DNA of 64,000 nucleotides from Dehalococcoidia bacterium (GTDB taxonomy: Bacteria > Chloroflexota > Dehalococcoidia > Lucifugimonadales > UBA2985): positions 865,683 through 929,682 of the forward strand of contig OZ252024.1 in assembly GCA_965247645.1 (NCBI GenBank), read 5' to 3'. Positions within the stretch are counted from its first letter, which is position 1. Every line of letters begins with the position of its first letter. A program made the translations under genes and the position numbers. Below are positions 13,067 through 57,739 of this stretch, one piece after another. Below the pieces are notes generated by a model that saw nothing but the letters and a program-made list of their open reading frames with translations, was not told where the DNA came from and ran no database searches.

Positions 13067-13068
13067 AT

Positions 13069-13251
13069 CTACCTCATCATACCAGAGCGCATTACAGAGG
13101 TAGCATTGAGACTCAAATTCCTCAGGTCCCCCACCCTTATCAGTAAGGTATCAGTAAGGCCCCAAGTCATACAGTGGGGGAAATCCAGCCTGCCAAGGCC
13201 ATGATCGACCGCAGCGTTTATGGCAGAGTGAAAATCACGGGGAGCAATCAC
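13069..13251 (-). CDS. Possible small ORF tightly coupled to 12539..13066
   Basis: Its TAG stop (13069-13071) lies 2 nt from the ATG (13066) of the downstream gene. There is no homology signal, so it could be spurious. Confidence 0.2.
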   Translation of the reverse strand: MIAPRDFHSAINAAVDHGLGRLDFPHCMTWGLTDTLLIRVGDLRNLSLNATSVMRSGMMR

Positions 13252-13309
13252 CCTACCTCATGGTGGGCGCTCCAAGCGTCGAAGGGTTGGGACGACTGCC
13301 GGCTGCGGG

Positions 13310-13975
13310 TCAGTACATTACGTGCGCCTGCACCGATACGGCCACCGACATCTCAATGTCCTGGATGGCCCGAGACATGGCTTGGCCGATGAGGTCCAGC
13401 TTGCGCACCTGCTCGATACGAGCAGCCACCGTGGCCAGCTCTTGCCGGGTCAGCAGCTCCTTGAAGATGTCGCAGGCGTCGGCCAAGCAGATGATCACCA
13501 CGTCGCGCGGGCTGGGGATGCCATCGCTGAACAGCACGTCCATAATGCGTAGCTTCACCTCGCGCTCCGCATTGCCATCTACGGACGGGTAACGCCTGGA
13601 GCGGAACACCCAGAGAAAGCGGTCGTCCTGGCGCTCCAGAATGCCCTCCTCCACCAGCCGGGAAAGCGCCTCCTCGCGGATGGCTGGGCCGCTCCTTGCC
13701 GTGCTTGTAACCCAGAAACGGGCGTCGTGCTTCTCCCCCATCTCGGCCTGGGCTGCAATCTCGGCCAGCGTGGGGTCAAGCAGGCTGTCGCCGATGGGCG
13801 TGGCATCGATGAGAAACAGGCTGTCCAGGTCTGTGTCGATGCGGTTCTCCATCGCCAGGTCCATCAGCACAGCACCGGCGGTGGCGTAGTCCAGCGACCA
13901 GTTGGACACGGTTACGAACCTCCCGTCATCGTCGCGAAGCAGAAGCAGGACTATTTCCTCGACAAATCTCAACAT
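13310..13975 (-). CDS. GOLPH3/GPP34-family protein
   Basis: MLRFVEEIVLLLLRDDDGRF...LDYATAGAVLMDLAMENRI is the typical GPP34 N-terminus, and the length (221 aa) fits. Confidence 0.75.
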   Translation of the reverse strand: MLRFVEEIVLLLLRDDDGRFVTVSNWSLDYATAGAVLMDLAMENRIDTDLDSLFLIDATPIGDSLLDPTLAEIAAQAEMGEKHDARFWVTSTARSGPAIREEALSRLVEEGILERQDDRFLWVFRSRRYPSVDGNAEREVKLRIMDVLFSDGIPSPRDVVIICLADACDIFKELLTRQELATVAARIEQVRKLDLIGQAMSRAIQDIEMSVAVSVQAHVMY

Positions 13976-28300: not shown

Positions 28301-31300
28301 CGATCTCAACGACATTGACAACAATTTGACTGATTCCGGCGCGGTCTACGTATTCACCAAGTCACCCGACGTCGCCTGGGCCGACGCCACTGAGACCGCC
28401 AAGCTCACTGCCTCCGACGGCGCGGCGAAGGACGAATTCGGGATCTCCGTCGCCATCGACGTTGATACCGTCGTGGTCGGAGCGCACCAGCCCAGCTATC
28501 AAGACGAAAACGATGTGACCGTCGATGTGGGGCCCGGCGCGGCCTACGTCTTCACCAAATCCGGCAACGTCTGGGCCACCGCCACCGAGACTGCCAAGCT
28601 CATCGCTTCCGACGGCGCGGCGAACGACGAGCTTGGAATCTCCGTGGCCATCGACGGTGACACCGTCGTGGTTGGGGCGCGCCTGGACGACGACAATGGC
28701 GACAGTTCCGGCGCGGTCTACGTATTCACCAAGTCACCCGACGTCGCCTGGGCCGACGCCACTGAGACCGCCAAGCTCACTGCCTCCGACGGCGCGGCGA
28801 AGGACGAATTCGGGATCTCGGTGGCCATCGACGTTGATACCGTCGTCGTCGGAGCGCACCTGGAAAACGCCAATGATGACGACGTAGACACCACTGACGA
28901 CGTCGCTGACTCCGGCGCCGCCTACGTCTTCACCAGGAATGCCGGTGTGTGGGACAATGGGGTAAAGCTCACCGCTTCCAACGGCGACATGGGCGATGGG
29001 TTCGGCAAATCAGTTGCAGTGAACGGCAATACCGTCGTCGTCGGGGCGTATCTGTTCGACCGCGACGACCGCGTTGTTCCTGGCTCCGGTTCGGCCTACG
29101 TGTTTGCCAGGGATCCGAACTCCGGCAAGTGGAGCCAGACGCTCAATCTCGCCGGCCCCGACCCCGACCAGAACGACTGGTTCGGACACTCCGTTGCGAT
29201 AGGAGATGACGGTACTCTCCTGGCAGGCGTGCCCCAGGACGACGGTAGTCGCGGTTCGGCATACGCGATCAACATATCAAATGCGAAGTGGGTGGACTTC
29301 GTCTCAACAGAATTGACCATGTCCGATGACCGGTACTACGTCTACCGGGCGCTCCATCTGACCAACGACCAAGAGTACGGCTTTCGGGTGCGTGCCGTGA
29401 ACGCCGCAGGCAATACTCGTTCTGCGGAAACCGACGCGGCCACGCCCAAGCTTGCGAAGCCGGGCAAACCCGAAGATCTGGCCGCGAAGGCAAGAGACCG
29501 TGCCGTGGAGTTGAGTTGGAAACTCTCGGACGATTCCACCCTAGATCACTACGATGTACTGCAGCCTCCCGAGCAGACCAAGCTCACCGCCGGGTCCGAC
29601 AGCGAGGCGGACGGAAAGTTCGGGGAATCGGTAGCGGTGGATAGTGACACCCTCGTGGTCGGGGCGTATCAGCACGACGTAGACGGCAAATCCAACGCCG
29701 GCGCCGCCTACGTCTTCACCAGAAACCCGATCTCCGGTGAGTGGAGCGAGGTGGCCAATCTCACCGCTTCAGATCCGGCGGTAAACGACGAGTTCGGGTA
29801 TTCCGTGGCTGTGGACGGTGACACCATCGTGGTTGGAGCGCGCCAGGACGTCACTCGCAACGGCGCCGCCTACGTCTTCACCAAGGTCTCAGGCGTGTGG
29901 AGCCAGAAGGCGAAGCTCATAGCCTCGGACGGCGCGGCCAACGACGAGTTCGGATTCTCCGTGGCTGTGCACGGCGACACTATCGTGGTTGGGGCGCACC
30001 AGGACGACGACAATGGCGATATATCTGGCTCGGCCTACGTCTTCACCAAATCCGGCAACGTCTGGGCCACCGCCACCGAGACCGCCAAGCTCATCGCCTC
30101 TGACGGCGAGGAGGGCGATCGCCTTGGACGTTCCGTTGCGGCGCATGGAACCACCGTTGTGGTAGGAGCGAACCTGCACGACATCGGTACCAACGATAAT
30201 GCCGGCGCGGCCTACGTCTTTACCGAGCCAGCCAACGGGTGGGCCAACATAGATAATACTACTGCGGCCAAACTCACCGCCGACGGTGGCGAGCAATTCG
30301 GGTCTTCCATAGCGGTGGACGGTAACACTGTCGTGGTCGGGGCCCGCAAGAATAACGCTGCTTACGTATTCATTCTGGGCTCTGGTATGTGGTCCCAAGC
30401 GGCAAGGCTCGAGGCTTCTGACAGCGACGGGTCCGAAGAATTCGGGTCCTCCGTCGCGGTACGGGGTAGCACCATCGTGGTCGGGGCGGACTCCACCGAT
30501 ATCGACCCTTTCGATAGTGATGACGCTCGCTCAGGCGCGGCTTACCTCTTCACCAAGACGGACGGGGCCGTCTGGACCAACGATCCGAACAAAGACCACA
30601 GAACGGAGTCAGGCAGGCTCACTTTACCCATCGAAGAAGGGGCCGTAGAGAAGTCCGACGAGTTCGGAAACTCCGTCGCCCTGGACGGCCAGAGCATCGT
30701 GGTCGGGGCGCCCGAGGGCAGCGATGGCTTCGGTTCGGTCTACGTGTCGGGTATCCCGCAGTGGTCCCCTATTTCCGGCAGCAATGCTACCACCACCTTC
30801 CACACAGTCAGAGGCCTGACCAACGGCATGGAGTACACCTTCCAGGTCCGCACGGTGGACAAGTTGGACGATGTTGGCGCCGGCCCGCCCTCGGACATCG
30901 TTCGGGCCACGCCTGAGCGTAACAAAATCCCTGAAGCCATACCCGATGCCTTTACCATCAAAGAAGACACCGCGGAATTCTTCAACGTCATCGCCAACGA
31001 CACGGACATGGATGAGGACACCCTCAGCGTAACCGCGGTGAGCGAGCCCAGCAACGGCACAGCGGAGATCGTGGAAGGCTCGATGACGGAGGTCACCTAT
31101 ACGCCGGATGCCGACTTCCACGGTTCCGACTCGTTCACCTACGAGGTGAGCGACGGATACGGAGGTACGGATACGGGTAGGGTCGACGTAACCGTCACAC
31201 CGGTGAACGATGCTCCTGATGCCTCCAATGATATCTTCACTGTTTTGGAGAACGCATCGGCCACATCCCTTAACGTAATCGCCAACGACATAGACGTGGA

Positions 31301-32363
31301 TGGGGACACCCTCTCCATCAGTGTGGTCAATGAGGTTGCGGTGATAAGCAGCCCATCAAACGGCGCTGCCGTCATCAAACCGGGTAGCACGACGGAGATC
31401 ATGTACACGCCCAAAGGCAACTTCCGCGGTTCCGACTCCTTCACCTACGAGGTGAGCGATGGAAACGGAGGCACGGACACCGGTACGGTCACTGTCACAA
31501 TTACACAGGCGAACTACATGCCAGGATTCGTCGAGGGCCCTAGCGCCACCCGCACTGTTCCTGAGAATGCGGACGTAGGGACAGCAGTGGGTGGTCCGGT
31601 GACAGCCAGGGACGGGGACAATGACCGTCTGGAATACTGGTTGTCAGGAACAGAAGTGTCAACTTTCGAAGTGGACCGTTGGACGGGGCAACTCACCACA
31701 AGGACCTTGTTGGATTACGAGGTCCAGAGCGAGTACTTGCTGCAGATGAGGGTGCGGGACGGCCGAGATGGCGTCAATGGCATCAACGTGACGATAACCG
31801 TAGTGGACATGGATGAGCCGCCCTCACAGCCAGGAGCCCCTGAAGTAAGCAGCGCCGGCCCGACCGGCCTAGCGGTTAGCTGGACGGCGCCCGATACCCA
31901 GGGGGCGGAGATAACTGACTACGACGTACAGTACCGGGAAGCCGGTGGAGAGTTTCGAGACGCAGGCTACGATGGCGTCGGCCTATCCACGACCCTGGAA
32001 GACCTGAGGCCGGGGACCGGTTACGAGGCGCAGGTGCGGGCCATCAACGCTGATGGGGCCGGCGCTTGGTCGGAATCGGGTCTAGGCGAAACTGAAGAGG
32101 AGCCTCCTACACCGACGCCGGAACCTACGCCTACACCAACGCCGACGCCGGAACCTACGCCTACCCCGAAGCCCACGCTGGAACCTACAGCTACTGTGCC
32201 TCCAGTGTCAACGCCCACACCCACGCCCACGGCGGAGCCATTGCCGCCCGAGGATGGGGACGATGGAGACGGGGGGTTCCCTTGGTGGGCTATCATTGTG
32301 GTAGTGATTGGGATAGTTGCTGGAGTCGTTCTCATCGTTGTGGCGCTACGTAGCCGGAGATAG
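19398..32363 (+). CDS. Giant (4321 aa) secreted surface protein: FN3 modules, six 7-bladed FG-GAP-like propeller blocks, cadherin-like domains, PT linker, C-terminal TM anchor
   Basis: Signal peptide MRTRSRFRGLALVAAMALVILL...TFAQA. FN3 signatures (LTNGxxYTFxVRAVNAAGES). 42 units of D(E)FGxSVAxxGDTxVVGA...GAAYVFT arranged as 6 blocks of 7. Two VNDAP-type cadherin-like domains (FTYEVSDGxGGTDTG) and one cadherin repeat (VPENADVGT...LDYE...VVDMDEPP). Tail is TPEPTPTPTP linker, then GGFPWWAIIVVVIGIVAGVVLIVVALRSRR. Confidence 0.9.
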   Translation: MRTRSRFRGLALVAAMALVILLSGSSGPLNTFAQAQPPEQPSGLQALTGDTQVKLSWHNPGNASITGYQYQQKIGGVFGSWADIAGSNALTTSHIVTGLTNGTSYTFHVRAVNAAGESAPTGEQSATPAAASYAPARPRNFSATQTGVSQVELTWDAHRYPLTVTGYEYIAADGSGTVWKTIPGSDSSTVSHTVTGLSAVPTYTFAVRAVNSAGSTESDSRSVTIVAKPAAPDSFSAVAGDGQVWLRWRSPADFTISAYEYRQKEGADALGDWQAIPGSRSGTTFHIVTGLTNGASYTFQLRAVNAAGESDASGEQSATPATASSAPVKPEGFSAAQTGIGQVELTWEASSNPLNVTGYQFKQNSGSWTTISESDHSAVSHIITGLTQGVVYTFAVRAANSFDESASSGAQPVTVVAKSAAPDPFAAEAGDTQVRLTWDDPVNASITKYQVFQFPESIKLISDDRADDDELGWSVAVDGDTLVIGALGDDPNNTGAAYVFTRDARGWYQVGKLTALVRRGDAGFGHSVAVHGDTIVVGAYEEDHPDPPNVDMGDVGAAYVFTRPATGWADMTQTARLTASDAVANDEFGTSVAVHGDTIVVGAPEEDTGARGSAYIFTRPANGWADMTETATLIGQSDGDRFGRSVAVHGDTVVVGAHEVGDNYRGEAYVFTKSAATGVWHDWDKKKANVATGRLTASDRATNDKFGYSVAMDGDTIVVGALYNDYDDTDGDTDDDEGAAYVFTKPAAGWATGNETAKLTASDGAENDQFGISVAVDGNTVMVGADQDDSKRGTVYVFTKPDGGWANDTDSDDDGEFDHTTETTTLTAYDRSQNDRFGNSVAVDGDTVLVGAAGDDSAKGSAYVFGTEAEWADIPGSGAGTTSHIATRLPNGAEHTFRVHAVNAAGEGGASEVDETPVAATFGPSRPGDFTTNQTGIGEVRLAWTASAKPLTVRHYTFKQGSQNWAKIDESDSSTASHTVTGLTAGTKYTFAVRAVNGGGQNSSPSKEVTIEARAAAPTGFTADAGDEQVKLSWDNPVADSPPIDKYQHLQIDQSKLTAADGLLGDLFGYSVAVDGNTAVIGAYQNDPGESGNTTSNAGAAYVFTRSSPTDPWSQVAKLTASDGAENDEFGISVAVDGNTAVIGAHQNDPGESGNTISNAGAAYVFTKPTDGWDSDDDDIINETAKLTAFGAAADDEFGISVSVAGDTILVGAHQNDQSATVTNSGAAYVFTKFGGLWGNAPVSGDHRVETAKLIASDGAANDEFGISVALDGDTAVIGARQDDTRNGSAYVFTKVSGVWSQEAKLIASDGAADDEFGISVAVDGETTVIGARQVDAKNGAAYVFIKVSGVWSQKAKLIAADGAADDEFGISVAVEGDTIVVGAHQDDDNGDLSGSAYVFTRDSAGGWGQKAKLTASDAAEGDRYGYSVAISGDTVLVGAPYNDYDDTDSDTNDDEGAAYFLSVLEWVDIVDTLDSDAGTRSHIVAGLTNDEEHTFQVRGVNAAGAGLASARAGSTPMFAIPDPPDGLTADAGDAVVALTWDDPEDSTIGKYQLLQITQGRMLTASSTDDPVARGDGFGISVALDGNTAVIGVYQDDHTDDGNTIGNAGSAYVFTRSSSTDPWSWAAKLTADDGAANDEFGISVAVDGDTIVVGAHQNDSSKGAAYVFTWNSSNSKWEQKAKLTASDAAANDEFGISVAVHGNTIVVGAHQDDDATNGDNSGSAYVFTKPAAGWATGAETAKLTADDAAADDEFGISVAVHGDTVVVGAHGNQNTVDGTDVSTGAAYVFTKPESGGWATATETAKLTADDAAADDEFGISVAVHGDTVVVGAHKYDVGVGTEKANAGAAYVFTKPETDANGDSSIDWKDWGSLDDDGKAKLTAKLIASDAARGDAFGISVAVDDNEDTIVVGAYLDDDNGDNSGSAYAFTRDSNSGKWSHTAKLTGPSRGKDDWLGHSVAVVGNTVIAGAGKSNISGPDSGAVYLWVVPGWADIADSRATTTSHTVTGLTNRVEYSLQVRAVDKVEGTGPPSDVRATPLKPRPAKPTELSAAPGDTRVRLSWELPGESSPPITSYQLWQHAENAVLTADTREANDEFGYAVAIDGDTAVVGMPGEDNPDNSGAAFVYTRDPLGTWSQVARLRPRDPGTNYRFGLSVAVHEDTSNGDTIVVGVPDHTNKTGAVYVFGEPATGWANDEDGDGDGNVDHTTETAKFLASDGAEDDEFGISVAVDGDTVVVGAHLDDDNGTSSGSAYVFTKSPDVAWADATETAKLTASDGAADDEFGISVTIDGDTIVVGASGDDSSTGSAYVFTKPATGWANSAGDQVAKLTAYFRVDGDGFGRSVAIDGDTIVVGAPYNDYDDDDNDTNDDEGAAYVFTKPDTGWAYSPGTETAMLTASDGSGDDQFGSSVAVDGDTVIIGADALNSTRSGSAYVFAKPESGGWVDSTEAAKLTGSGTAGGDRYGLSVAVSGVTVMVGANGQGDNDQGAAYIYGIQDWNPIDGSTGETTSHFATGLTNGVEHTFAVRAVNDGDAGLPAQKSADTATPGSPPLKPRNFSAVQTGAKEVRLEWGQTADPLNVTEYEYIQDDISNDVDTPAWATISDSDFATVSYTVSDSNLSAGSTYTFAVRAVNSAGEGVPSISLLVTIVTAPAAPTRLRAEPGDEQVILSWDLPAEGSPPVTSYKYQQGANGAWSDITESGASTTSHVVSDLTNNQRYTFRVRAVNAAGEGAPSEVAATPRRAGSRPAAPDDFLAVQTGVGQVKLSWGTPQDQDPPVTRYAYRQDDSWTTIQGSNSSATSHTVRGLSEETTYIFAVRAINSRGEQDSESIPVTIEAKPKRPTGFSATAGDTQATVEWRVPDDEEDPPIDKYQLLQVPQSTLTAEDRAANDEFGYSVAIGGNTAVVGAHQDDDDGDSSGAAYVFTKDLTGKWTQVAKLTASDGAANDEFGISVAIDGDTIVVGAHKADYIDLNDIDNNLTDSGAVYVFTKSPDVAWADATETAKLTASDGAAKDEFGISVAIDVDTVVVGAHQPSYQDENDVTVDVGPGAAYVFTKSGNVWATATETAKLIASDGAANDELGISVAIDGDTVVVGARLDDDNGDSSGAVYVFTKSPDVAWADATETAKLTASDGAAKDEFGISVAIDVDTVVVGAHLENANDDDVDTTDDVADSGAAYVFTRNAGVWDNGVKLTASNGDMGDGFGKSVAVNGNTVVVGAYLFDRDDRVVPGSGSAYVFARDPNSGKWSQTLNLAGPDPDQNDWFGHSVAIGDDGTLLAGVPQDDGSRGSAYAINISNAKWVDFVSTELTMSDDRYYVYRALHLTNDQEYGFRVRAVNAAGNTRSAETDAATPKLAKPGKPEDLAAKARDRAVELSWKLSDDSTLDHYDVLQPPEQTKLTAGSDSEADGKFGESVAVDSDTLVVGAYQHDVDGKSNAGAAYVFTRNPISGEWSEVANLTASDPAVNDEFGYSVAVDGDTIVVGARQDVTRNGAAYVFTKVSGVWSQKAKLIASDGAANDEFGFSVAVHGDTIVVGAHQDDDNGDISGSAYVFTKSGNVWATATETAKLIASDGEEGDRLGRSVAAHGTTVVVGANLHDIGTNDNAGAAYVFTEPANGWANIDNTTAAKLTADGGEQFGSSIAVDGNTVVVGARKNNAAYVFILGSGMWSQAARLEASDSDGSEEFGSSVAVRGSTIVVGADSTDIDPFDSDDARSGAAYLFTKTDGAVWTNDPNKDHRTESGRLTLPIEEGAVEKSDEFGNSVALDGQSIVVGAPEGSDGFGSVYVSGIPQWSPISGSNATTTFHTVRGLTNGMEYTFQVRTVDKLDDVGAGPPSDIVRATPERNKIPEAIPDAFTIKEDTAEFFNVIANDTDMDEDTLSVTAVSEPSNGTAEIVEGSMTEVTYTPDADFHGSDSFTYEVSDGYGGTDTGRVDVTVTPVNDAPDASNDIFTVLENASATSLNVIANDIDVDGDTLSISVVNEVAVISSPSNGAAVIKPGSTTEIMYTPKGNFRGSDSFTYEVSDGNGGTDTGTVTVTITQANYMPGFVEGPSATRTVPENADVGTAVGGPVTARDGDNDRLEYWLSGTEVSTFEVDRWTGQLTTRTLLDYEVQSEYLLQMRVRDGRDGVNGINVTITVVDMDEPPSQPGAPEVSSAGPTGLAVSWTAPDTQGAEITDYDVQYREAGGEFRDAGYDGVGLSTTLEDLRPGTGYEAQVRAINADGAGAWSESGLGETEEEPPTPTPEPTPTPTPTPEPTPTPKPTLEPTATVPPVSTPTPTPTAEPLPPEDGDDGDGGFPWWAIIVVVIGIVAGVVLIVVALRSRR
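28334..28488 (+). repeat. 155-bp intragenic direct repeat, copy 1
   Basis: 152/155 identity with 28706-28860, offset 372 bp (124 codons, two blades). Encodes SGAVYVFTKSPDVAWADATETAKLTASDGAAKDEFGISVAIDVDTVVVGAH. Confidence 0.85.
28706..28860 (+). repeat. 155-bp intragenic direct repeat, copy 2
   Basis: Only three mismatches to copy 1 (two C>G, one G>C). Confidence 0.85.
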
Positions 32364-46789: not shown

Positions 46790-47760
46790 GCCTTGTTCTC
46801 TCAGCACATATGGTACAGAGGCTCTAGAATGAGCCATGAGCAGATTAGCAGTACGGACCATCATCGAAACATGGAAGGTGTGCGATCAGAACGTCTCGGA
46901 AACGGCCCGGCGTTTGCACGTAGACCGCCGGACCGTCAAACGCTGGGTGGATCGAGGGCGGCAGCCCTGGGGTTACGTGCGCTGGCAGGGCGTGCGGCGC
47001 AAGTCTACTGCACCCAAACACCCCAAGCGTGCGCTGTGGGGGGAAGCTGCCGCCGAAGTGCGAAGGTGGAGGGAAGCGACTGGCTTCTGTCGGGAGAAGC
47101 TAGCGGTCTTGGCCCAGGCTCAAGGGCTGGAGGTCTCGGCATCGACCATTCATCGGTATTTGCAACGCGTGGGCTTGGTTCGCCCCAGTACGAAGCGACG
47201 GCGGCCTCGCTTTCAGAACGGCCAAGTCATGCGGCCTCGTAACTGCCCAGGCTTAGGCTACCTTCAGATGGACGTGAAGTACGTCACTCCTGAGTTGTCT
47301 GGGTTGCCGTACACTTGCTACCTGTACGCGGCGATGGACATCTCCTCTCGCTACAAGGTTGGGCTAATCCTCCCCAAGCTGGATGAGGGGGGAACACTCT
47401 TGTCCCTGTACTATGCCACACAGCAGTTCCCCTTCCCGTTGCACTACGTCCAGACGGACAATGGATTGGAGTTTCAGAGACGCTTTCACGCCAAGTGCGC
47501 CGAACTCGGCCTTGAACACTTCTACATCCACAAGAGTTCTCCCAATGAGAACGCTGTAATCGAGCGGAGTTTCCGCACGGACGAGGAGGAGTGCTTCTTC
47601 CGGTTAGAGGAAGCGCCCCAAGACCACCAGGAGCTGAACACTTGGTATCAGCGCTTCCTTGATGCCTACAACACTACCCGACCACACATGGGCATCAATA
47701 TGCTTACTCCAAAGGAGGCTATCGCCCTGTACCAAAAGTCCTGAGAGATTAAGAGAGGCT
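46790..47760 (+). mobile_element. IS481-like insertion sequence between the permease and binding-protein genes
   Basis: Contains an intact transposase ORF. Imperfect terminal IRs: left GGCCTtgttCTCTCAG, and right reverse complement GCCTctcttaatCTCTCAG. Boundaries are approximate. Confidence 0.6.
46836..47744 (+). CDS. IS481-family DDE transposase (HTH plus rve core)
   Basis: HTH VSETARRLHVDRRTVKRW. DDE triad context: LQMDVKYV, YVQTDNGLEF, PNENAVIERSFRT. C-terminus YNTTRPHMGINMLTP. Confidence 0.8.
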   Translation: MSRLAVRTIIETWKVCDQNVSETARRLHVDRRTVKRWVDRGRQPWGYVRWQGVRRKSTAPKHPKRALWGEAAAEVRRWREATGFCREKLAVLAQAQGLEVSASTIHRYLQRVGLVRPSTKRRRPRFQNGQVMRPRNCPGLGYLQMDVKYVTPELSGLPYTCYLYAAMDISSRYKVGLILPKLDEGGTLLSLYYATQQFPFPLHYVQTDNGLEFQRRFHAKCAELGLEHFYIHKSSPNENAVIERSFRTDEEECFFRLEEAPQDHQELNTWYQRFLDAYNTTRPHMGINMLTPKEAIALYQKS

Positions 47761-47869: not shown

Positions 47870-48962
47870 ATGAAATCCATGTACAAGCCCATCTTACTGA
47901 TATTGGCGATGGTGACCGTCATTGCTGCAATGGCCTGCAGCTCGGAAGACCCCACCGCTACGCCGACCACGGCGCCTACGCCGACCACGGCGCCTACGGC
48001 CACCGCCATGGTGATGCCGGAAGTCGAGAAAGAGGTCATTGTCTTCAGCGACCTTAACTGGACCAGCGCCCAGGTGCAGAACAGAATCGCCCAGTACATC
48101 GTGGAAGAGGGCTACGGCTATCCCACGGACGTCGTTTTCGGCGCCACACTACCCCTGCTCGCCGGTCTGCGAAAAGGCGACACCCAAGTAACTATGGAGA
48201 TATGGCTCCCCAACCAGCTTGAAGCTTGGACGGAGGCTGTCGACAACGGCGAGGTGGAAGCCTTAGGCGAGAGCCTGGGGAAGGACTGGCAATCGGCCTT
48301 TGTGATTCCGGCATACCTCCAGGAGCAATACCCGGAACTGGACAGCATTGAGGACCTCAAGGACGATCAGTTCAAAGAGCTGTTCGACGACCTCGGAGAC
48401 CGGGGGCAAGGCCCGCCTGGTGTCCTGCGTCATCGGCTGGGCCTGCGAGGAGGTCAATGCCGAGCAGATCGAATCGTACGGGCTGTCTGACCACGTCTAC
48501 GTAATCAACCCGGGGGACGGCGCAGCTGCCAATGCAGATCTGTACGGCGCCTATGAGAAGGAAGAACCCTGGCTTGGCTACCAGTGGGGCACCAACGACC
48601 CCGCTTTGCTACTGGATCTCGTCCGCCTCGAAGAGCCACTCTATAGCGACGAGTGCTGGGCTTCCGGCAAGGCCTGCGGGTACGAGGACGCCACGATTCT
48701 GATTGGCATAAATACCGAAATAAACGACAGGGCGCCCGATGTCGTTGACATGCTGAATGAGTGGGGCTTCAACATAAACCGCTTCAAGGAAGTTGCCGCT
48801 TGGCAGAATGACAACCCGGATGCCGACATCAATGACGCCGCTCTCTGGTGGATGAATGGCAATACAGACGTCTGGAGTGAGTGGGTTACGGACGAGGCCG
48901 AGGCCGCCATCATGGGAGCCCTCGCAGCTAACGAGACACCGGACGGCTGGCCGACAGGATAG
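47870..48962 (+). pseudogene. proX: Glycine betaine ABC substrate-binding lipoprotein (ProX/OpuAC-type), split by a frameshift
   Basis: ORF 47870..48490 carries the signal with AMAC lipobox, PT linker and N-terminal lobe. The family continues in ORF 48348..48962 (ETGGKARLVSCVIGWACEEVN...EPWLGYQWGTNDP). The frame switch maps to about 48380-48395. Confidence 0.75.
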
Positions 48963-49023: not shown

Positions 49024-49458
49024 GTGCGGCCAAGAGTCGTTGCGCCCGGTCGGAGCAGGTATAGGCGCGTCTTGACCCTCCTGTTGGTTGGAGTCGGCGG
49101 CCTTCTTGGCGCGTCCATGCGCTACCTGGCGGCGGCCTGGGTGCAGAACGCGGTCGGCAGCGCCGGCTTCCCGTACGGGACACTGGCGGTGAACGCAGCG
49201 GGCTGCTTGCTGATTGGCTTGGTCGTCGGGTTCTTTGAGGCGCGGCAGCCGTTAAGCTCCGAGGCGCAGGCGTTCGTGATAGTCGGCGTTCTTGGGGGGT
49301 TCACCACCTTCTCGGCTTTCGGCATGGACACAATCAGGCTGCTCCGAGACGGCGCCTACCTTGCCGGCTCCGCCAACGTGGTTTTGCAGGTAGCCATTGG
49401 CCTGTCCGCGGTGGCGGTCGGCCTCCGGCTGGGGCAGTGGATCCAGGCGAGGGTATAG
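49024..49458 (+). CDS. crcB: Fluoride ion channel CrcB/FluC
   Basis: GVGGLLGASMRYL..., GTLAVNAAGCLLIG, VGVLGGFTTFSAF. The true start may be the in-frame TTG at 49072. Confidence 0.85.
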   Translation: MRPRVVAPGRSRYRRVLTLLLVGVGGLLGASMRYLAAAWVQNAVGSAGFPYGTLAVNAAGCLLIGLVVGFFEARQPLSSEAQAFVIVGVLGGFTTFSAFGMDTIRLLRDGAYLAGSANVVLQVAIGLSAVAVGLRLGQWIQARV

Positions 49459-49519
49459 CCGCGCGACGCCGGGCGGTGCGGCCCCGCTCGGAGGCGGGAA
49501 TGACGGTGAAGGCCCCCCC

Positions 49520-50107
49520 TCACACCACCAGCGCCGAGCCCCGCGGACGCGCTTTGCCGCCATGCACCGATGGCTCGGCGCACCACTTGGCGGACAGCCG
49601 TCGCACCGCCTCGTAAGTGGCGTGGTCGAAGCCGAGGAGGTCGCAGACGGCGCGCTGTGGGACGGACACCAGGCGCGCCATGTCCGCCAGGTCCTCAAGG
49701 TCGCTGTCCAGCCAGCCGGACTCCGGAAAGCGGCGCACGTCCTGGGCCTCCTCGGTGAAGACGCAGTAGGAGATGCGGGCCGACGACAGCGCGGCACGGA
49801 GGTCGTCGGCATTGGCGACCTCCTCCGGGTAGCGCAGGGCTATCACTGCTTCGATGACGCGGCCGTTGGATGCCACCTCCAGCCCAAGACGTTCCTTCGC
49901 CTCCATTTCGACTGTGTGAGCAGGCATATACTCCGCCTCGACGACGACAGGCGCGCGGCCTGGCGCGGTGATCAGGATATCGGGGCGCAGCCCGGGATGG
50001 CCGGAGATGGCCTGGGTGTTCTCGGAGCGGACGCTGCTACGGGGCAGCATGGCCTGGAGCAGGCTGCCCGTTGCGTTGTTGGCGCTTGGCTCAGTCTGAT
50101 GGGGCAT
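49520..50107 (-). CDS. Hypothetical protein, possible PD-(D/E)xK-like nuclease fold
   Basis: GLRPDILITAPGRAPVVVEAEYMPA resembles a D...ExE/K nuclease core (no Lys). 195 aa. The C-terminal 40 aa look compositionally odd, so the gene may be truncated or disrupted. Confidence 0.4.
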   Translation of the reverse strand: MPHQTEPSANNATGSLLQAMLPRSSVRSENTQAISGHPGLRPDILITAPGRAPVVVEAEYMPAHTVEMEAKERLGLEVASNGRVIEAVIALRYPEEVANADDLRAALSSARISYCVFTEEAQDVRRFPESGWLDSDLEDLADMARLVSVPQRAVCDLLGFDHATYEAVRRLSAKWCAEPSVHGGKARPRGSALVV

Positions 50108-50171
50108 TGACAGATATTAGCATATCCGCTAAGTTGACGTTACCACCCCAGCGATTGCATCGCTGGCCTGA

Positions 50172-50200
50172 CGCCTCCCTTGTGGAGGCGTTTATTATTG
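50172..50200 (+). terminator. Stem-loop followed by a T-rich tract (intrinsic-terminator-like on + strand)
   Basis: ACGCCTCC-cttgt-GGAGGCGT then ttattatt. A second hairpin, CCAGCGAT-tgc-ATCGCTGG, lies just upstream. No obvious + strand gene ends here. Confidence 0.3.
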
Positions 50201-50473
50201 CTATTCAACGCTCCCCTCGCGGCTCAACCCAGGGCGCTGCTGCCCTGCCTCGATCTCGCCGAGCATGGTCTCTATATCGGCCGTGGGGAAGCTGTGCCGT
50301 GACGGATCGGCAATGGCGCGCAGCTTGGCCTCGGCACTCCCTTCCTCGTAGCTCCCTTGCCACGCGCAGCGCCTGGCGGACCCATTCCGCTACGGTTAGA
50401 CGCTGTCTGCGGGCGGCTTAAGGATTTCCAGGAACTCATCTACATCGATCAGGACCTGAAGGCGTTTGGGCAT
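50195..50473 (-). pseudogene. Ribbon-helix-helix (VapB-like) antitoxin with two frameshifts; no cognate toxin downstream
   Basis: Frame X gives MPKRLQVLIDVDEFLEILK. Frame Z gives AARRQRLTVAEWVRQALRVARE. Frame X resumes with GSAEAKLRAIADPSRHSFPTADIETMLGEIEAG. Together these reconstruct the common PIN-associated RHH antitoxin. Confidence 0.65.
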
Positions 50474-50530
50474 GGTTATAGTATAATTCACTCATGGCGA
50501 GTTAGTCGAGGAGCGGAAGCAGGTCGGGGC

Positions 50531-51205
50531 TCATGCTCCTGGATTTGAGTTCTCATTGGCAAGTTTCTCAATGCAGTCCCAACTCAGCGCGTTCCTTTTC
50601 TCAAGCCAGCCTTGAGCGACCATGAATTTGGCCTGTAGGGTGTTCCTCAGGTTCTCTATCGACCTATTTGCGAGGCGAACCGGAGTTTTGCACTTCTCAT
50701 CTCTGTGCAATATCCTCATTCGGTTCTGTTGCACATTTTGCAGGAGTAGCCTCTGAGTTGACCTGCTCACGGAGTTCCGCCAACGTAAGATTCGCCCCTT
50801 TACGGCTGTTGCATCGTTCACACAGTAAGGTGTAGTTCGAAGCGTCGCTCCGTCCACCCTTTGCGCGAGGAACGATATGGTCCACCTGTATCTCTTTGAA
50901 CCGGCATCGCTTACCCATCCCCTGCATTCCGGTGATTCCCTGAACAGTGCCCGTTTAGGGTCAGCGTTCACGCGGTTCACCCTCCTCAGATGGGCTCTGA
51001 GGGCACGGGTTATGTCTTGCCACTGGCAACTGGAGCTGAAGCATGTGGCGCGTATGCCATTCGGCGTGTCAAAGACTGCACAGTTCCCGGGGGAGCGGTC
51101 CATGCCCGAATGCGTCGGCGCAGGGCATGGAATGCGCCAGAACTTCCCGCCGGTGGTCCAAGCTGTAGGGAAATAGGCTAGTGCTAAATCTCTTGCGGTC
51201 GGCAT
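50531..51205 (-). pseudogene. Zinc-finger (primase CHC2-like) plus HNH endonuclease gene, split over two reading frames
   Basis: The long frame gives WRIPCPAPTHSGMDRSPGNCAVFDTPNGIRATCFSSSCQWQDI. The HNH core KRCRFKEIQVDHIVPRAKGGRSDASNYTLLCERCNSRKG lies in the overlapping frame 50697..50927. The switch is near 50930-50945. Confidence 0.6.
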
Positions 51206-51300
51206 AAGAACTTCCTGTTGTCCGCGCTATCCGTAGCAAGGGACCCTGGGAAATGCAACAGAACCCTCATTGCGTCTCCTTTCAGCTATTCAACTCTTGT

Positions 51301-52758
51301 TTACGGCCCACCGCCACCAGCCTCCGACAGCAGCTTGTTGTAGATGCGGACCATCGCCTCCGTGTCACGCTCGCAGTAGGCCAGCAGCGCTTGCCGGATC
51401 GACGCCTTCTCAGACGCAGGCGCGTCAGCGGCGGTCATGCGGGCGTAGGCCATCGACGCGGCCATGCCGTCCTGGACATCCAGGTCGGCGTAGTCCATGT
51501 CGGGGACAAGTGCCGGCAGCACGGACTTGAGGGAGTAGCTGCCGTTGAACCCAGGATGGTAGTAGCCGCCCCGGACCAGCTTCAGCAGATCGACCACCCG
51601 GTCGCACAGGGCAAGCAGGCCGTCCTTGTGATGCGGGAACCCCTCCGCCAGCTCCCGCATCATCGTCTTCTCGTACGGCGAGTAGGCGACGATTGAGCCC
51701 TCGATGGGGACCGCTTCCAGCAGGCCGGTTATGAAACGCTCCCTGGGATCCTCCGCATCGCCGTTCAAAAACGAAGCATGGCTCAGCCGCCTGCCAGCGT
51801 CCAGGACGTGCATCGACCACTGGAACGGGACTCTCTGGTACGGCCTTGTCACGACGTATACCGGAACGGCTGGACCGACGGTCTCGAAGTCCAGGAAGGC
51901 GGCAGGGAAGGCTATCTCCCCCAGGCGAGAGGCTCGGGCTGCAAGCCACGCTGTTTCTGCGGCTCCCGGGAAATCCGGCGGGATGCCTCCAATCTCCCGG
52001 ATTCCCGACGCCTTCAGGCGCTCGTAATCCCCACGCTTCAACCTGGGCAGGTCTGTGATTGGCTGCTCTGGCTCATCCTGGTGGCAGTGGCCGTAAAAGG
52101 AGCACCGGTGGGGGCTAGTGCAGTGAAGTCCGACCGCGATGTCCGGCGCGTGGTCAAGTTGCAGCGCCTCCCACATCCGGTCCAGGTCGTTGGGCACGCT
52201 CTCCGCCACAAACGCCCTGGCGCGGTCGGAGACGTCCTCCAGGGTGAACAGTTGCTCCAGGTCGTGGTCGCCGCCCTGGTACACATAAGCCTTGTTGATG
52301 TACATCAGGTACGCCCTGTCGATGCGAACGCCGCAGCCCTCCGCGGCGTACACCTGTATAGCCACGTCCGTGACGTGCTCCGGCTTGACCGACGTGGTGG
52401 ATTTGGCCTCCACAAGATCGAACCCCTGCCAGCCGTTCCGCCTGAGCACGTCGATTCGCGTCCTGATGCCCTGGAAGGTGAATGCGGCCTCGTACAGGGC
52501 CGGGATGCCGTCGTCGGCCAGAAGGGCCTTGGTCGTCTCGACCGCCTGCGCGTGCTCCAGGTACGTCTCCTGGACGAGCCTGCCGTTGGGGAACCGACGC
52601 CGCGCCAACTCGCCGACGGCTGTGCCGGAGTCGAATATCGCCTGCAGTCCCGCGCCAACCGGGTCGGCAAGCTCCCGGTGGTAGGCTTCCAGGTAAAGCC
52701 GTTTCAGGCACTGGCGGCCGTATTGGAACCTGGACTTGGATAGAAGCGCTGTGGCCAT
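51301..52758 (-). CDS. DUF2779-family protein (Cas4-like PD-(D/E)xK nuclease N-domain plus RNase-H-like C-domain)
   Basis: LSKSRFQYGRQCLKRLYLE..., IDVL...FDLVEAKS, four Cys (C17 and CTSPHRCSFYGHC), FLDFET...PFQWSMH...YCERDTEAMV; 485 aa, intact. Confidence 0.8.
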   Translation of the reverse strand: MATALLSKSRFQYGRQCLKRLYLEAYHRELADPVGAGLQAIFDSGTAVGELARRRFPNGRLVQETYLEHAQAVETTKALLADDGIPALYEAAFTFQGIRTRIDVLRRNGWQGFDLVEAKSTTSVKPEHVTDVAIQVYAAEGCGVRIDRAYLMYINKAYVYQGGDHDLEQLFTLEDVSDRARAFVAESVPNDLDRMWEALQLDHAPDIAVGLHCTSPHRCSFYGHCHQDEPEQPITDLPRLKRGDYERLKASGIREIGGIPPDFPGAAETAWLAARASRLGEIAFPAAFLDFETVGPAVPVYVVTRPYQRVPFQWSMHVLDAGRRLSHASFLNGDAEDPRERFITGLLEAVPIEGSIVAYSPYEKTMMRELAEGFPHHKDGLLALCDRVVDLLKLVRGGYYHPGFNGSYSLKSVLPALVPDMDYADLDVQDGMAASMAYARMTAADAPASEKASIRQALLAYCERDTEAMVRIYNKLLSEAGGGGP

Positions 52759-52947
52759 TCGTACACCCCCACTCGATTGTCTCTACGCGCTTCCAATTGT
52801 ATACGAACTGGGGAAGCGTTGGCAGCCGGCGAAGGCGGGCCTGGGGCCGGGCATTCTCAACATGTGTTGGTAATGGCGCACGACACCGCTCATACTGAGC
52901 TTGTCGAAGTAAGTGAGCGGTGGCAGCTACGCCCGCAGTCTACCCGC

Positions 52948-53304
52948 TCATATGGTTCGAGATTCCTCTTTCTCAATTGACACTAAATCTTCAGTCGGGA
53001 TACCCAGGATGATGCTGACGTTGTTGCCACGGTCGATTACGATTCGATCCACGATTAGCCGCAGGATGTCCCGGCGCTCCTCGGAGGATAAGTTGCCCAA
53101 CCCATTCCCAACTCTACCAGTCCACTCGATGATGTTCTCCATAAGAACGCTGTTCTTCGCTGCCAACGACGCTTGGGCGCGGTAGTCATCGAGCTTCACC
53201 CGCGCGGCTTCCAGACGTTCGAGTACGAGCTTGCGCTGATGGTCGAGCTGTCCCTCTGTGATCTTACCGGACACATACAGGCCAATTACCCTGTCGTCTT
53301 CCAA
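52948..53304 (-). pseudogene. C-terminal fragment of a large serine recombinase
   Basis: Coiled-coil and tail region: GKITEGQLDHQRKLVLERLEAARVKLDDYR...LSSEERRDILRLIVDRIVIDRGNNVSIILGIP. No catalytic N-domain. Confidence 0.5.
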
Positions 53305-53600
53305 CTGGATTCCCCGGAGCTTACGCTCTGCGTTACGAGCGGTTCCGGTGGATGCCAGTCAGGCGGATCAACATTCCCAAGCCTAACGGCAATACCCGCC
53401 CCCTGGACATACCGGCGTGGACGGACAAGATGCCGCAAGAGGTCATCCGGATGATTCTGGAGACCTACTAGGAGCTGCAGTTCTCCGACAGTTCCCACGG
53501 CTTCCGGCCCCGCCAGAGGCGCCACACCGCCCTAAGCGATGTGACCAACACATCACCTTGGCGGCGCGCCGGGGCGGGCGCCACGGTGGACCGCGGTAGA
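53302..53600 (+). pseudogene. Group II intron reverse-transcriptase fragment (RT motifs 0-2 only, in-frame stop)
   Basis: YERFRWMPVRRINIPKPNGNTRPLDIPAWTDKMPQEVIRMILETY*ELQFSDSSHGFRPRQRRHTAL closely parallels LtrA-type RTs (PVRRMYIPK...RPLGIPTFTDKLIQEAVR..LE.IYEP.F...SHGFRP..SCHTAL). TAG at 53469-53471. Confidence 0.75.
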
Positions 53601-53670
53601 TGGACCCGCCCTGGACGGTGGTAGCATTTGACTGAGCAACCACTTATAACTTACGCTACTGACTACGTAG

Positions 53671-54807
53671 ATGAGCCAAATTGAGTTGGTAACTGGGGGG
53701 TCTCGCCTAGCCGAAGTCGTCGATCATATATCGAGGGCGCCGCGAGTAGCAGTCGACATCGAGTCGAACGGGTTCTTCAGGTATCACGAGCGCGTCTGCC
53801 TCGTGCAGCTCGCATCAGCCGAAACTGCCTTCGTCGTCGATCCGTTGGCAATAGACGATGTCCGACCGCTTGGTGATCTTCTCGGTGACCGATCGGTGGA
53901 AAAGGTATTCCATGCCGCCGACTACGACCTCCGTAGTCTCGACAGGGACTGGGGATTTCGGGTGAACAACTTGTTCGACACCGGTATTGCCGCCGCCTTC
54001 GTTGGCTCAGAGCAGCTGGGCTTGCAGGCCGTGGTGGAGGAGCACGCGGGGGTGGCATTGGTCAAGGACCGGAGACTCCAGAGGTCAGACTGGACGATGC
54101 GGCCCCTAAGCCCTGAAGCGCTGACGTACGCAGGAGACGACGTCCTGCACCTTTTGCAGGTCCGCGAATCACTTTCGGCGCGGCTAGAGACGCTATCGCG
54201 GCTCGCATGGGCGCAGGAGGAGTTCGCACGTCAGGAGAACATGAAGTATACTCCTCCCGAACGCGAGTTGGCCTTCCTTTCGATCAAGGGTAGCCGCGAT
54301 CTGGACGGGAGGGGTTTGGCTATTCTGCGCTCTCTGTACCAATTCCGCGAACAAGAGGCCAAGCGTCTCGACCGTCCGTTCTTCAAAGTGATACCGGATT
54401 CCGCGCTCGTCATGCTGTCGTCCGAGCCCGAGGCCGACCTCTCGGCCGTCAAAGGGCTGGGCCGGTTCGGTCATCCCCCTGCCAACAGAGACCTGAAAGC
54501 CGCCATACACGAAGGGCTCAGGTCCGGCCCAGTGACTCGGCCGAGGCGGACACAGAGTGAAGAGAAATTGAGCCCAGCAGAGCGAGAGAGGGTCAGGACT
54601 CGCTCCAAGAGTCTCAAGACGTGGCGCAGCCAGTTGGGAAAGGAACTATCTATGGACTCAGGCCTGCTGTGGCCAGCCGTGAGCCTGGAGCGCCTGGCTC
54701 GGCGCCCAAGTGGCTTGCGCTCCGAACTCGTTAGCCCTGAGGTCCGGAGTTGGCAGAAGCGCGAGTTCAGCTCGGCGCTGAGGAGAGTTCTCGCAACTTT
54801 GAGTTGA
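53671..54807 (+). CDS. rnd: Ribonuclease D
   Basis: DEDD exonuclease motifs VAVDIESNG, FHAADYDLRSL and YAGDDVLHLL, plus an HRDC-like region LRSLYQFREQEAKRLDRPFFKV. Confidence 0.85.
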   Translation: MSQIELVTGGSRLAEVVDHISRAPRVAVDIESNGFFRYHERVCLVQLASAETAFVVDPLAIDDVRPLGDLLGDRSVEKVFHAADYDLRSLDRDWGFRVNNLFDTGIAAAFVGSEQLGLQAVVEEHAGVALVKDRRLQRSDWTMRPLSPEALTYAGDDVLHLLQVRESLSARLETLSRLAWAQEEFARQENMKYTPPERELAFLSIKGSRDLDGRGLAILRSLYQFREQEAKRLDRPFFKVIPDSALVMLSSEPEADLSAVKGLGRFGHPPANRDLKAAIHEGLRSGPVTRPRRTQSEEKLSPAERERVRTRSKSLKTWRSQLGKELSMDSGLLWPAVSLERLARRPSGLRSELVSPEVRSWQKREFSSALRRVLATLS

Positions 54808-56949: not shown

Positions 56950-57102
56950 AACTTGAGATACCTGTCGGAGGCGACGCTTGGGCACGACGGCGCAGACCTG
57001 CTCATCGCCGCCACGGCGCTGGAACACGGCCTGACAGTCGTTACCCGCAATGTCCGCCACTTCGAGCCGACGGGAGTCCCTACACTGAATCCCTTCGAGT
57101 GA
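56950..57102 (+). pseudogene. C-terminal fragment of a PIN-domain (VapC-like) toxin
   Basis: RYLSEATLGHDGADLLIAATALEHGLTVVTRNVRHFEPTGVPTLNPFE*. Only the last 50 aa or so of the fold are present. Confidence 0.6.
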
Positions 57103-57166
57103 GCTAGTAATTGGTCGCGAGCTAGAAGTGGTGAGACGATTCACTGGCTCCTTTTTTCTCTACATT

Positions 57167-57240
57167 GGGCCAGTAGCTCAGGAGGTTAGAGCAACAGCCT
57201 TCTAAGCCGTGGGTTGCGGGTTCGAGTCCTGCCTGGGGCG
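57167..57240 (+). tRNA. tRNA-Arg(TCT)-like sequence with imperfect acceptor and anticodon stems
   Basis: The D arm gctc-aggaggtta-gagc and T arm gcggg-ttcgagt-cctgc are good, and the anticodon loop is ctTCTaa. However, acceptor gggccag/ctggggc has G2:G71 and G3:G70 mismatches, and the anticodon stem has one A:C. No CCA. Confidence 0.5.
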
Positions 57241-57739
57241 CTTTCCTTGTGTTGCGGCCTATGTCTCCAATTCCTCACCAAGCTTGCGTTTCTCGGCCCC
57301 GTCGCGCCATATTAGCCAAGCGGAGGGTTTCGATGGGCTCACAGGGCCCCATCCGCATCTCAAAGATGGTACTGACTACCGTCCACCCAGCCCCCCCAGT
57401 TTTGGCCTTCGTGTTCTGAATGTATAACTGGCCGCAACGGACACTGCTCTATTAGCCAAGAATCATGGCCGGCGAGTCGAAGGGCCGCCGCAACGAGTGC
57501 GACGGCCTCTTTTGCCACCTGACGTGTCCGATTTGCGCCTTCGCCCGGACCGTCTGGAGTTCTTGGTTCTTCGACAACGGAGAGTAGGACCTTCATAGTC
57601 CTGCGAGGTGTCCACTCGCTGCCTTGAGTCTGCGACTACGGCTTCGTGGGTTTCGAATTACGCAAGCTATGCACGAATGAATGCGTCTGGTTTCGCATAA
57701 TCTTAAGAGAAATGTAAGAAAAGGCTTGTCAATAATGAC

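Follow-up and report, generated by a model that had tools for sequence, protein, structure and literature searches.

The subject of this analysis is a block of reverse-strand open reading frames (ORFs) located between the housekeeping gene crcB and the RNase D gene rnd in a 64,000-nucleotide (nt) stretch of contig OZ252024.1 of a Dehalococcoidia bacterium; the whole stretch is referred to as the window, and all coordinates are window positions unless a contig is named. The block is most probably the remnant of a decayed island of the restriction-modification type, consisting of the debris of several independent events in a lineage-specific accessory region. Its core, from about 49500 to 52893, would be a degraded copy of a transferable cassette. 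The ancestral order in this cassette would have been a DUF2779 gene, the gene of a 233-amino acid (aa) PD-(D/E)xK-like protein, the gene of a ribbon-helix-helix (RHH) protein, and the gene of a type IIG/IIL-like enzyme of about 967 aa, in which a nuclease-like domain at the N-terminus would have been followed by an Eco57I/gamma-type N6-adenine methyltransferase and a C-terminal region. In the window, a 3.5-kb deletion between 9-bp repeats has taken out the whole methyltransferase, leaving an in-frame stub of 195 aa; the RHH gene has been inactivated via two indels and a stop; and a zinc-finger (ZnF)-HNH gene, which by now is frameshifted and has lost a zinc ligand, has displaced about three quarters of the 233-aa gene. 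No modification or restriction activity can remain in this genome. The initial annotation, which considered any function of the block as probably lost, is borne out to that extent, but not for the DUF2779 gene, which is intact and, judging from its sequence, likely to be the only functional gene of the block. The features of the core are the following:

52796 to 52893, reverse strand: upstream edge of the cassette, with the start of homology to sister contig L106 at 52892 and a promoter-like site at 52825-52796.
51301 to 52758, reverse strand: DUF2779 gene, intact, 485 aa, predicted Cas4-like Fe-S PD-(D/E)xK nuclease plus DEDD-type exonuclease-like domain.
51255 to 51270, reverse strand: retained beginning of the 233-aa gene (start codon plus a few more codons), from alignment with sister contigs L099 and L002; homology runs through the ribosome-binding site (RBS) and the ATG and then stops.
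50697 to 51205, reverse strand: ZnF-HNH pseudogene with Pfam HNH and HNH_5 matches; strain-specific insertion or replacement.
50531 to 50704, reverse strand: 3′ remnant (last ~57 codons) of the 233-aa PD-(D/E)xK-like gene, assigned by phmmer and tblastn to the C-termini of P0143, P0146, P0150, P0151, and P0153 (220-245 aa).
50195 to 50473, reverse strand: pseudogene of the RHH protein, by comparison with the intact 90-aa copy of L002.
50108 to 50194, reverse strand: spacer with three hairpins, the last of which (GGATAT-GCTA-ATATC) reaches up to the start codon of the 195-aa methyltransferase remnant.
49520 to 50107, reverse strand: 195-aa chimeric remnant of the ~967-aa enzyme, aa 1-154 and the last 45 aa fused in frame.
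49646 to 49654, reverse strand: deletion junction with the 9-bp microhomology CGCGCCGTC, from a three-way alignment with L002; the same 9-mer is present at both end points.

Reconstruction of the cassette was based on three sister contigs (L002, L099, and L106) with 91-99% DNA identity. Contig L001/L002 (ENA ERZ26167216, 124 kb) was reached via the 118-aa ORF of a recombinase fragment adjacent to the cassette. Its identity to the window is 99.5% over typA, rnd, the recombinase tail, and DUF2779 codons 1-216, and 98.6% over crcB and the OpuAC gene, but only 91-94% in the stretch between DUF2779 codon 216 and crcB. The gene order in L002 is rnd, recombinase tail, a DUF2779 gene split by a deletion of ~100 nt, an ORF of 45 aa, the intact RHH gene (90 aa), three ORFs of 720, 247, and 293 aa, and crcB. 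The 293-aa ORF encodes a clan-AA aspartic-protease-like protein and, together with the 720- and 247-aa ORFs, occupies the place of the 195-aa ORF of the window. Contigs L099 (3.9 kb) and L106 (20.9 kb) carry the DUF2779 gene, the 233-aa gene, the RHH gene, and the N-terminus of the large methyltransferase ORF. In L106, the context is different, with the cassette following an iron ABC transporter and a UvrA-like gene. Homology between the window and L106 begins at 52892 (~52893), 134 nt ahead of the DUF2779 start codon, and therefore the transferable unit starts there, with the recombinase tail and a neighboring reverse transcriptase (RT) fragment lying outside. The four near-identical loci (window, L002, L099, and L106) are found in four different states. 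In the comparison with L002, the synonymous divergence dS is 0.013 in DUF2779 codons 1-216, 0.137 in codons 265-485, and 0.23 in the stub of the methyltransferase; from the jump inside the DUF2779 gene, which marks a recombination breakpoint, it is concluded that the inner part of the cassette was exchanged by homologous recombination. As a side observation, the 293-aa protein of L002 is encoded by a ~1-kb segment of low GC content (0.50; L002 12049-13410), flanked by a ~180-bp direct duplication of the methyltransferase 3′ end, of which the window keeps only the crcB-proximal copy.

The 195-aa ORF had been described as a gene in its own right. Alignment with L002 shows that it is the remnant of a methyltransferase gene that suffered an in-frame deletion of 3.5 kb. 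In tblastn, its residues 1-154 align to the same positions of the 720-aa ORF with 92% identity, and residues 151-195 align to the 45 C-terminal residues of the 247-aa ORF; at the junction, ~3.5 kb are missing (L002 ~9780 to ~13270). The 720-aa ORF contains the Eco57I methylase domain PF07669 (27.6 bits versus a cutoff of 25.3) and matches the MTase_II, mad2, and type IIG models of PADLOC, and a PDB sequence search with it returned nothing. Taken together, the 720- and 247-aa ORFs are colinear with individual proteins encoded on plasmids (947 and 971 aa), which are annotated as "N-6 DNA methylase" or hypothetical; the 247-aa ORF, a C-terminal part without any family match, aligns to their residues ~716-942. 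Since these plasmid homologues are single chains and the frame of the 247-aa ORF extends without a stop to the 5′ side of the 720-aa stop, the parent would have been one polypeptide of ~967 aa. On the same two grounds, a BcgI-like two-subunit type IIB system was discarded for the 720- and 247-aa ORFs. Membership in MADS or BREX was also rejected; the matches are confined to the methyltransferase core and lie far below the family cutoffs. A scan of viral contigs with the 720- and 233-aa proteins yielded nothing.

With the methyltransferase domain deleted, the 195-aa ORF of the window has no Pfam or PADLOC match. Its AlphaFold (AF2) model has a predicted local distance difference test score (pLDDT) of 84, and Foldseek with this model returns PD-(D/E)xK nucleases, with DrdV, an enzyme of type IIL, in first place (probability 0.87-0.90, E about 0.03); the matches are consistent, but all of them are weak, with E > 0.01. 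Thus, the structure search that had been proposed as a check makes the presumed PD-(D/E)xK-like core reasonable, albeit as part of the stump of a larger enzyme. In this N-terminal domain, D43 and E57 are invariant. The position of the lysine is taken by a glutamate (E59, codon at window 49931-49933) in the Dehalococcoidia clade; the plasmid homologues have PD...E-G-K and the clade has PD...E-A-E, in which E57 and E59 are invariant.

The reconstructed parent is reminiscent of the single-chain restriction-modification enzymes of type IIG/IIL, such as MmeI and DrdV (PMC4833311, bioRxiv 10.1101/2021.01.06.425610), in its length of ~950-970 aa and in the succession of a PD-(D/E)xK-like N-terminus, an Eco57I/gamma-type methyltransferase, and a C-terminal region. 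The structures best matching the N-terminus include that of DrdV, and the PADLOC type IIG models match the methyltransferase part. Different from these enzymes, the parent shows sequence similarity only in the methyltransferase motifs, the fold matches stay at E > 0.01, the catalytic lysine is a glutamate in the clade, the plasmid homologues are solitary and annotated only as N-6 DNA methylase, and the window keeps just 154 + 45 residues without the methyltransferase. The family of the N-terminal domain is abundant, with at least 858 matches. None of the 119 best homologues is longer than 341 aa, and in several of them the N-terminus has been fused to the same tail independently and in frame, with differing junctions. 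Internal-deletion derivatives of this kind, in which the N-terminal domain is joined to a C-terminal tail of ~25-60 aa, are P0022, P0054, P0136, and P0139 (e.g., L083 10001-10657). Including the window, five derivatives are in frame and one (P0076) is out of frame, which may reflect either selection or detection bias. Another truncated methyltransferase N-terminal domain (192 aa) is found in four assemblies (L084-L087, about 10001-13500), where it has a GmrSD-like gene and a fusion of an N6_N4 methyltransferase with HNH as neighbors. The flanks of this arrangement are rearranged; in L084, for instance, an ABC transporter operon is duplicated in inverted orientation.

Upstream of the methyltransferase remnant, the RHH frame is present and broken, as had been noted initially. 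Three lesions set it apart from the L002 copy, in this order: a -1 deletion, a TAA stop at codon 26, and a +1 insertion. The intact L002 protein gives only weak matches, both for RHH_1 (E 0.011, below the Pfam threshold) and for NikA-like proteins. A promoter-like site is located upstream of the pseudogene at 50509-50480. The role of an antitoxin, which had been assigned to it, finds no backing, since a toxin gene is absent beside the RHH gene in the window, L002, L099, and L106, with the methyltransferase gene always being next. For this reason, the RHH protein may better be read as a regulator of the methyltransferase gene than as an antitoxin. The spacer between the two genes was described as containing two strong hairpins; hairpins are indeed present, but their number is three in 50108-50200. 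This segment of 93 nt folds with a minimum free energy of -36.2 kcal/mol (z -4.33 versus shuffles), and the spacer sequence is nearly invariant in L002 and L099. The hairpins and the GGATAT-N4-ATATC repeat preceding the start codon are candidate operators. In having a small protein of DNA-binding type directly upstream of the methyltransferase, with inverted repeats kept in the spacer, the arrangement resembles that of the C proteins of restriction-modification systems. Classical C proteins, however, are of the helix-turn-helix (HTH) type, while here an RHH protein with a subthreshold RHH_1 match would be involved; RHH regulators of the CopG/VapB type in toxin-antitoxin pairs differ by possession of a toxin partner.

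The slot of the 233-aa gene differs among the four loci: the gene is intact in L106, frameshifted in L099, and reduced to the first 45 codons in L002, while the window keeps the RBS, the ATG, a few codons, and the last ~57 codons, with the ZnF-HNH pseudogene in between. The 233-aa family has at least 607 members, in which E123, D125, E138, and K140 are invariant, and no match to it was found in Pfam, NCBIfam, PADLOC, plasmids, or phages. The structural model of the protein (pLDDT 88) matches only PD-(D/E)xK nucleases by fold, all weakly. A single zinc-finger plus HNH gene had been proposed for 51205-50531, corresponding to the 224-aa ORF of the window. This did not hold, because in an exhaustive phmmer search the 224-aa ORF matched two sets of proteins that are unrelated to each other. 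Residues 3-100 match a rare family of ~161 aa with zinc finger and HNH domain (P0140, P0141, P0142, P0145, and P0147), and residues ~150-224 match the C-termini of the 220-245-aa proteins; the ZnF-HNH gene ends at 50697, and the rest is the 3′ end of the 233-aa gene.

The HNH domain (50697-50927; Pfam HNH E 3.8e-12; 46.6 bits versus a cutoff of 21.4 in the test with PF01844 and PF14279) is in a frame different from that of the zinc-finger ORF (50531-51205). The frame switches between 50918 and 50897 by a single-base event, and with this one frameshift mended near 50900 the pseudogene aligns end to end with the ~161-aa family. In addition, the second cysteine of the first CxxC, present in five of five relatives, is replaced by tryptophan, so that the window copy has neither an intact reading frame nor both zinc-binding CxxC pairs. 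Relatives are scarce, numbering only about 5-7 among 1.84 billion representatives; a word-index homologue search with the mended protein returned itself only, and tblastn against phages gave generic HNH matches at 27-44% identity. The gene is absent from the sister loci L002, L099, and L106, and its intact relatives stand alone in unrelated contexts (L098 and L100), which argues for a secondary, strain-specific arrival that replaced about three quarters of the 233-aa gene, and not for a partner of DUF2779. With its canonical DH...N...CxxC core it is comparable to small free-standing HNH genes (phage or homing type; PtuB-like and IscB/Cas9 HNH at the profile level), and it shares with selfish HNH genes the presence/absence polymorphism inside another gene. 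Distinguishing marks are the N-terminal C-P-x3-H...C-x3-C zinc-finger module of the rare ~161-aa family and the broken state of the window copy.

The DUF2779 gene was correctly recognized from the outset as intact and as encoding Cas4-like D/ExK and four-cysteine features. It matches PF11074 over profile positions 2-126 of 126 (E 2.6e-36; 125.1 bits versus a cutoff of 23.3) and, with aa 70-226, the PADLOC Cas4 model (E 2.4e-6). The motif residues are D103, E117, and K119, the cysteines 17, 213, 219, and 225, and the exonuclease-like FLDFET; the combination of D...ExK with four cysteines denotes membership in the Cas4/RecB-like superfamily only. No CRISPR-cas genes are found near the DUF2779 gene, and a PDB sequence search with the protein gave nothing. 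The ratio dN/dS is 0.23 versus L106, with 0.20-0.37 for rnd. The family has been described as a fusion of solo-Cas4 with a 3′-5′ exonuclease whose role is not known, and one member, MMSYN1_0389, is quasi-essential in JCVI-syn3.0 (PMC13621843; PMC3985635). The window gene resembles this member and the PF11074 family in matching the full Pfam model and in possessing the Cas4-like D/ExK triad and FLDFET. It differs from MMSYN1_0389, which is devoid of the Fe-S cysteines, in keeping all four, and from the PF11074 family in heading a cassette of the restriction-modification type.

Several observations concern the surroundings of this gene elsewhere. In contig L102, a 69-aa ORF (531-755) corresponds to the last 70 residues of a DUF2779 protein with 57% identity; it lies between the end of a PLP-enzyme gene and, directly downstream, a gene for a 242-aa member of the 233-aa family. 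Because only the DUF2779 3′ fragment is present, the DUF2779/233-aa pair would have decayed there, too, in an unrelated contig. On proteobacterial and cyanobacterial plasmids (L108, L109, L110, L113, and L114), DUF2779 is repeatedly part of co-directional clusters. In the eight plasmids sampled, an adjacent ATP-binding protein of 600-730 aa was found in four, a WYL protein in four, and both in three, with PLD or PD-(D/E)xK nucleases nearby. A WYL gene is also located beside DUF2779 in metagenome locus L093.

The features flanking the cassette are the following:

49024 to 49458, forward strand: crcB, left flank, housekeeping; Pfam CRCB E 5.6e-26; 99% identical to crcB of L002.
52948 to 53304, reverse strand: C-terminal 118 codons of a large serine recombinase, catalytic domain missing; 68-71% identity to C-termini in L003 and L006.
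53307 to about 53560, forward strand: group II intron-type RT fragment of ~80 residues with an in-frame stop.
53671 to 54807, forward strand: rnd (RNase D), right flank; Pfam DNA_pol_A_exo1 and HRDC.

ORF listing, Pfam, and PADLOC together reproduce the composition of the block as it had been described, including the flanks CrcB and RNase D: between crcB and rnd there are reverse-strand ORFs of 118, 485, 224 (with a 76-aa HNH ORF in another frame), and 195 aa, and the broken RHH frame. The gaps between these elements are 189, 95, 57, and 87 nt, in accordance with the spacing of 57-190 nt reported before, and the dip in GC content seen in part of the block is real, with 0.49-0.56 over 50531-51205 compared with 0.62-0.68 in the adjoining genes. 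The recombinase tail is the end of an enzyme of the 529-aa type, an intact example of which (L006:18755-20344; Resolvase, Recombinase, and Zn_ribbon_recom domains) is 68% identical to it. The 118-aa fragment, homologous to the C-terminal coiled-coil end of such large serine recombinases, contains no Pfam domain, the resolvase, recombinase, and zinc ribbon domains being absent; it lacks the catalytic and DNA-binding domains of these enzymes and lies outside the cassette boundary defined by L106. An RT fragment abuts it as annotated, although on the forward and not on the reverse strand; it covers RVT_1 positions 1-58 (E 7e-5, below the Pfam cutoff). Rfam detects no group II intron or other RNA in the block, one subthreshold small RNA match on the hairpins having been dismissed, and with ~80 RT residues left there is neither an intron RNA nor a full RT/maturase ORF. 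The recombinase had been counted as part of the cassette; given that L106 has the cassette in another context without recombinase tail or RT fragment, both are separate wreckage outside of it.

The synteny sample was obtained by scanning species-representative genomes with RNase D and comprises ~50 Dehalococcoidia metagenome-assembled genomes (one labelled SAR202), whose rnd is 56-92% identical. In none of the 50 related species do the 10 kb preceding rnd contain crcB, DUF2779, HNH, or a relative of the 195-aa ORF. By tblastx, homology with the window ends ~70-110 nt upstream of rnd (about 53560-53600); in its place, AllG/amidase/isochorismatase genes are located upstream of rnd in three sibling species and JAB, decarboxylase, and holB genes in another. 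Thus, the block is a lineage-specific accessory region and not core synteny. The empty crcB|rnd junction that was to be looked for does not exist in this sample because crcB and rnd are not neighbors in related species. The edges of the island are devoid of tRNA genes, the nearest one being tRNA-Arg at 57167, and no att-like direct or inverted repeats were found around the block. The gene set matches none of the defence systems in PADLOC-DB v2, as had been anticipated for the combination of DUF2779, ZnF-HNH, and PD-(D/E)xK; there are generic domain-level matches only (Cas4, PtuB/REase HNH, MTase_II, mad2), and none for the 195-, 233-, 247-, and 293-aa proteins.

With this evidence, the initial picture of a defence or mobile island holds in the form of a decaying accessory island with restriction-modification or defence content. 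The block is rich in nuclease-type genes, as claimed, and has restriction-modification-type content besides; the decay is evident from the methyltransferase deletion, the RHH lesions, the ZnF-HNH frameshift, and the replaced 233-aa gene. What does not stand is a three-nuclease system behind a recombinase. A defence system of several nucleases (DUF2779, ZnF-HNH, and the 195-aa protein), as yet undescribed and brought in by the serine recombinase, is suggested by the co-directional, closely spaced, and nuclease-related nature of the genes and by the absence of a matching PADLOC system. It is nevertheless the least credible of all readings and in effect refuted, considering that the ZnF-HNH gene is missing from three sister cassettes and has solitary intact relatives, that the 195-aa ORF is a deletion chimera, that no HNH or 195-aa relative occurs in the DUF2779 homologue loci, and that the recombinase tail lies outside the transferable unit. 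Almost as improbable is the notion that errors in long-read assembly only give the impression of pseudogenes, while the organism itself has functional genes. The single-base nature of the HNH frameshift, the scattered frameshifts in low-coverage metagenome sister contigs, and the many database homologues that are fragments of 130-340 aa would agree with it, but against it stand a 3.5-kb deletion with a clean microhomology junction, three separate RHH lesions, a Cys-to-Trp exchange at an invariant zinc ligand, and a 233-aa gene that was replaced and not frameshifted. It is also unlikely that one integrative element, placed between crcB and rnd by the large serine recombinase, has left behind everything from the RT fragment through the 195-aa ORF. 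The recombinase fragment is indeed situated at the rnd-side edge, with synteny ending on the rnd side of the tail, and intact homologous recombinases exist in related genomes (L006). On the other hand, the L106 cassette has no recombinase, the homology boundary at 52892 between tail and DUF2779 is sharp, neither att-like direct repeats flanking the block nor an empty crcB|rnd site are available, and the dS jump reveals allelic replacement by homologous recombination instead of site-specific insertion.

The alternative carrying most weight is that DUF2779 is an autonomous DNA-repair or maintenance nuclease that came to lie beside debris by an accident of the lineage, the cassette being functionally meaningless beyond the module of RHH protein and methyltransferase. 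It is a real possibility, if not the favored one. DUF2779 is the sole intact gene, under purifying selection comparable to that on rnd, and belongs to a widespread family with a quasi-essential member (PMC13621843; PMC3985635). Contrary to an autonomous role, the gene has moved to a second chromosomal context (L106) in company of the genes for the 233-aa protein, the RHH protein, and the methyltransferase, in a segment starting 134 nt upstream of the DUF2779 ATG; the 3′ end of a divergent DUF2779 gene abuts a 233-aa family gene in L102; and on plasmids DUF2779 often resides in defence-like clusters. Eleven other DUF2779 loci (34-56% identity) with unrelated neighbors (RecQ in L027, WYL, TPR, HlyIII, and others) speak for the autonomous role and weigh against the interpretation as a restriction-modification-type island, as do further points. 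A wholly intact four-gene cassette is not seen in any copy: in L002, DUF2779 is split, the 233-aa gene is truncated, and the methyltransferase has one frameshift; L099 and L106, both contigs of 5-6x coverage, have a 5′-truncated RHH gene and frameshifts, some of which may be sequencing errors in low-coverage contigs. The replacement of the catalytic lysine by glutamate (E-A-E) in the Dehalococcoidia clade makes endonuclease activity doubtful, and every structural match has E > 0.01. The plasmid homologues of the methyltransferase are solitary among anti-restriction and transfer genes, an orphan methyltransferase fitting as well as a restriction enzyme, and other remnants of the family occur without the cassette partners. 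Moreover, no flanking att-like repeats were found, and linkage of the four genes, from which their functional coupling is inferred, comes from a single clade of close relatives (DNA identity of at least 91%) and from one adjacency of DUF2779 and a 233-aa family gene at a distant locus.

If the cassette is the restriction-modification-type unit favored here, the intact large enzyme would have methylated the host DNA and, provided that its nuclease domain was active, would have cut unmodified incoming DNA. The RHH protein would have controlled transcription of the large-enzyme gene through the inverted repeats of the spacer, and the two small nucleases would have processed DNA ends. A bolder proposal, to which we assign a low probability, is that the four genes form a functional, as yet undescribed defence module of which the window has a dead copy, with the small nucleases acting together with the modification enzyme, for instance in degrading DNA marked or nicked as foreign. 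In a weaker form, DUF2779 could generally be a component of defence-type clusters, as is hinted at by the large ATP-binding protein and the WYL regulators next to it on plasmids.

From this scenario, an apparently novel three-nuclease cassette would be the product of ordinary decay in a variable region, by microhomology deletion, HNH gene replacement, and allelic recombination. The four states of four near-identical loci suggest that cargo of the restriction-modification type turns over fast in Dehalococcoidia. The 195-aa ORF would provide a dated and mechanistically clear case of how a restriction-modification-like gene for ~967 aa is turned into a small in-frame ORF annotated as a hypothetical protein. 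For the uncharacterized DUF2779, context clues are gained from the cassette described here and from the ATP-binding protein and WYL regulators on plasmids. The results open no long-standing question by themselves; the sizeable, unannotated family of 233-aa nuclease-like proteins and the reconstructed four-gene cassette are the only leads.

Further observations were made outside of the block. The window contains a single ORF of 4321 aa (13 kb) on the forward strand at 19398-32363. At 46836-47744, an IS481-like transposase gene (rve/rve_3 with HTH) constitutes an insertion relative to L002, with window 46791|47754 corresponding to L002 15142|15147; the identical protein is found on six contigs, and its 90% cluster has 27 members. 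The OpuAC gene (glycine-betaine-type binding protein), intact with 357 aa in L002, is frameshifted into two overlapping ORFs in the window (47870-48962). In the region beside typA (window 56970-57650; L002 2379-3037), the sister contig L002 contains a pair of PhdYeFM antitoxin and PIN toxin. The identity between the window and L002 falls to 86-98% in this typA-side region, which includes the tRNA-Arg (TCT) at 57167-57241.

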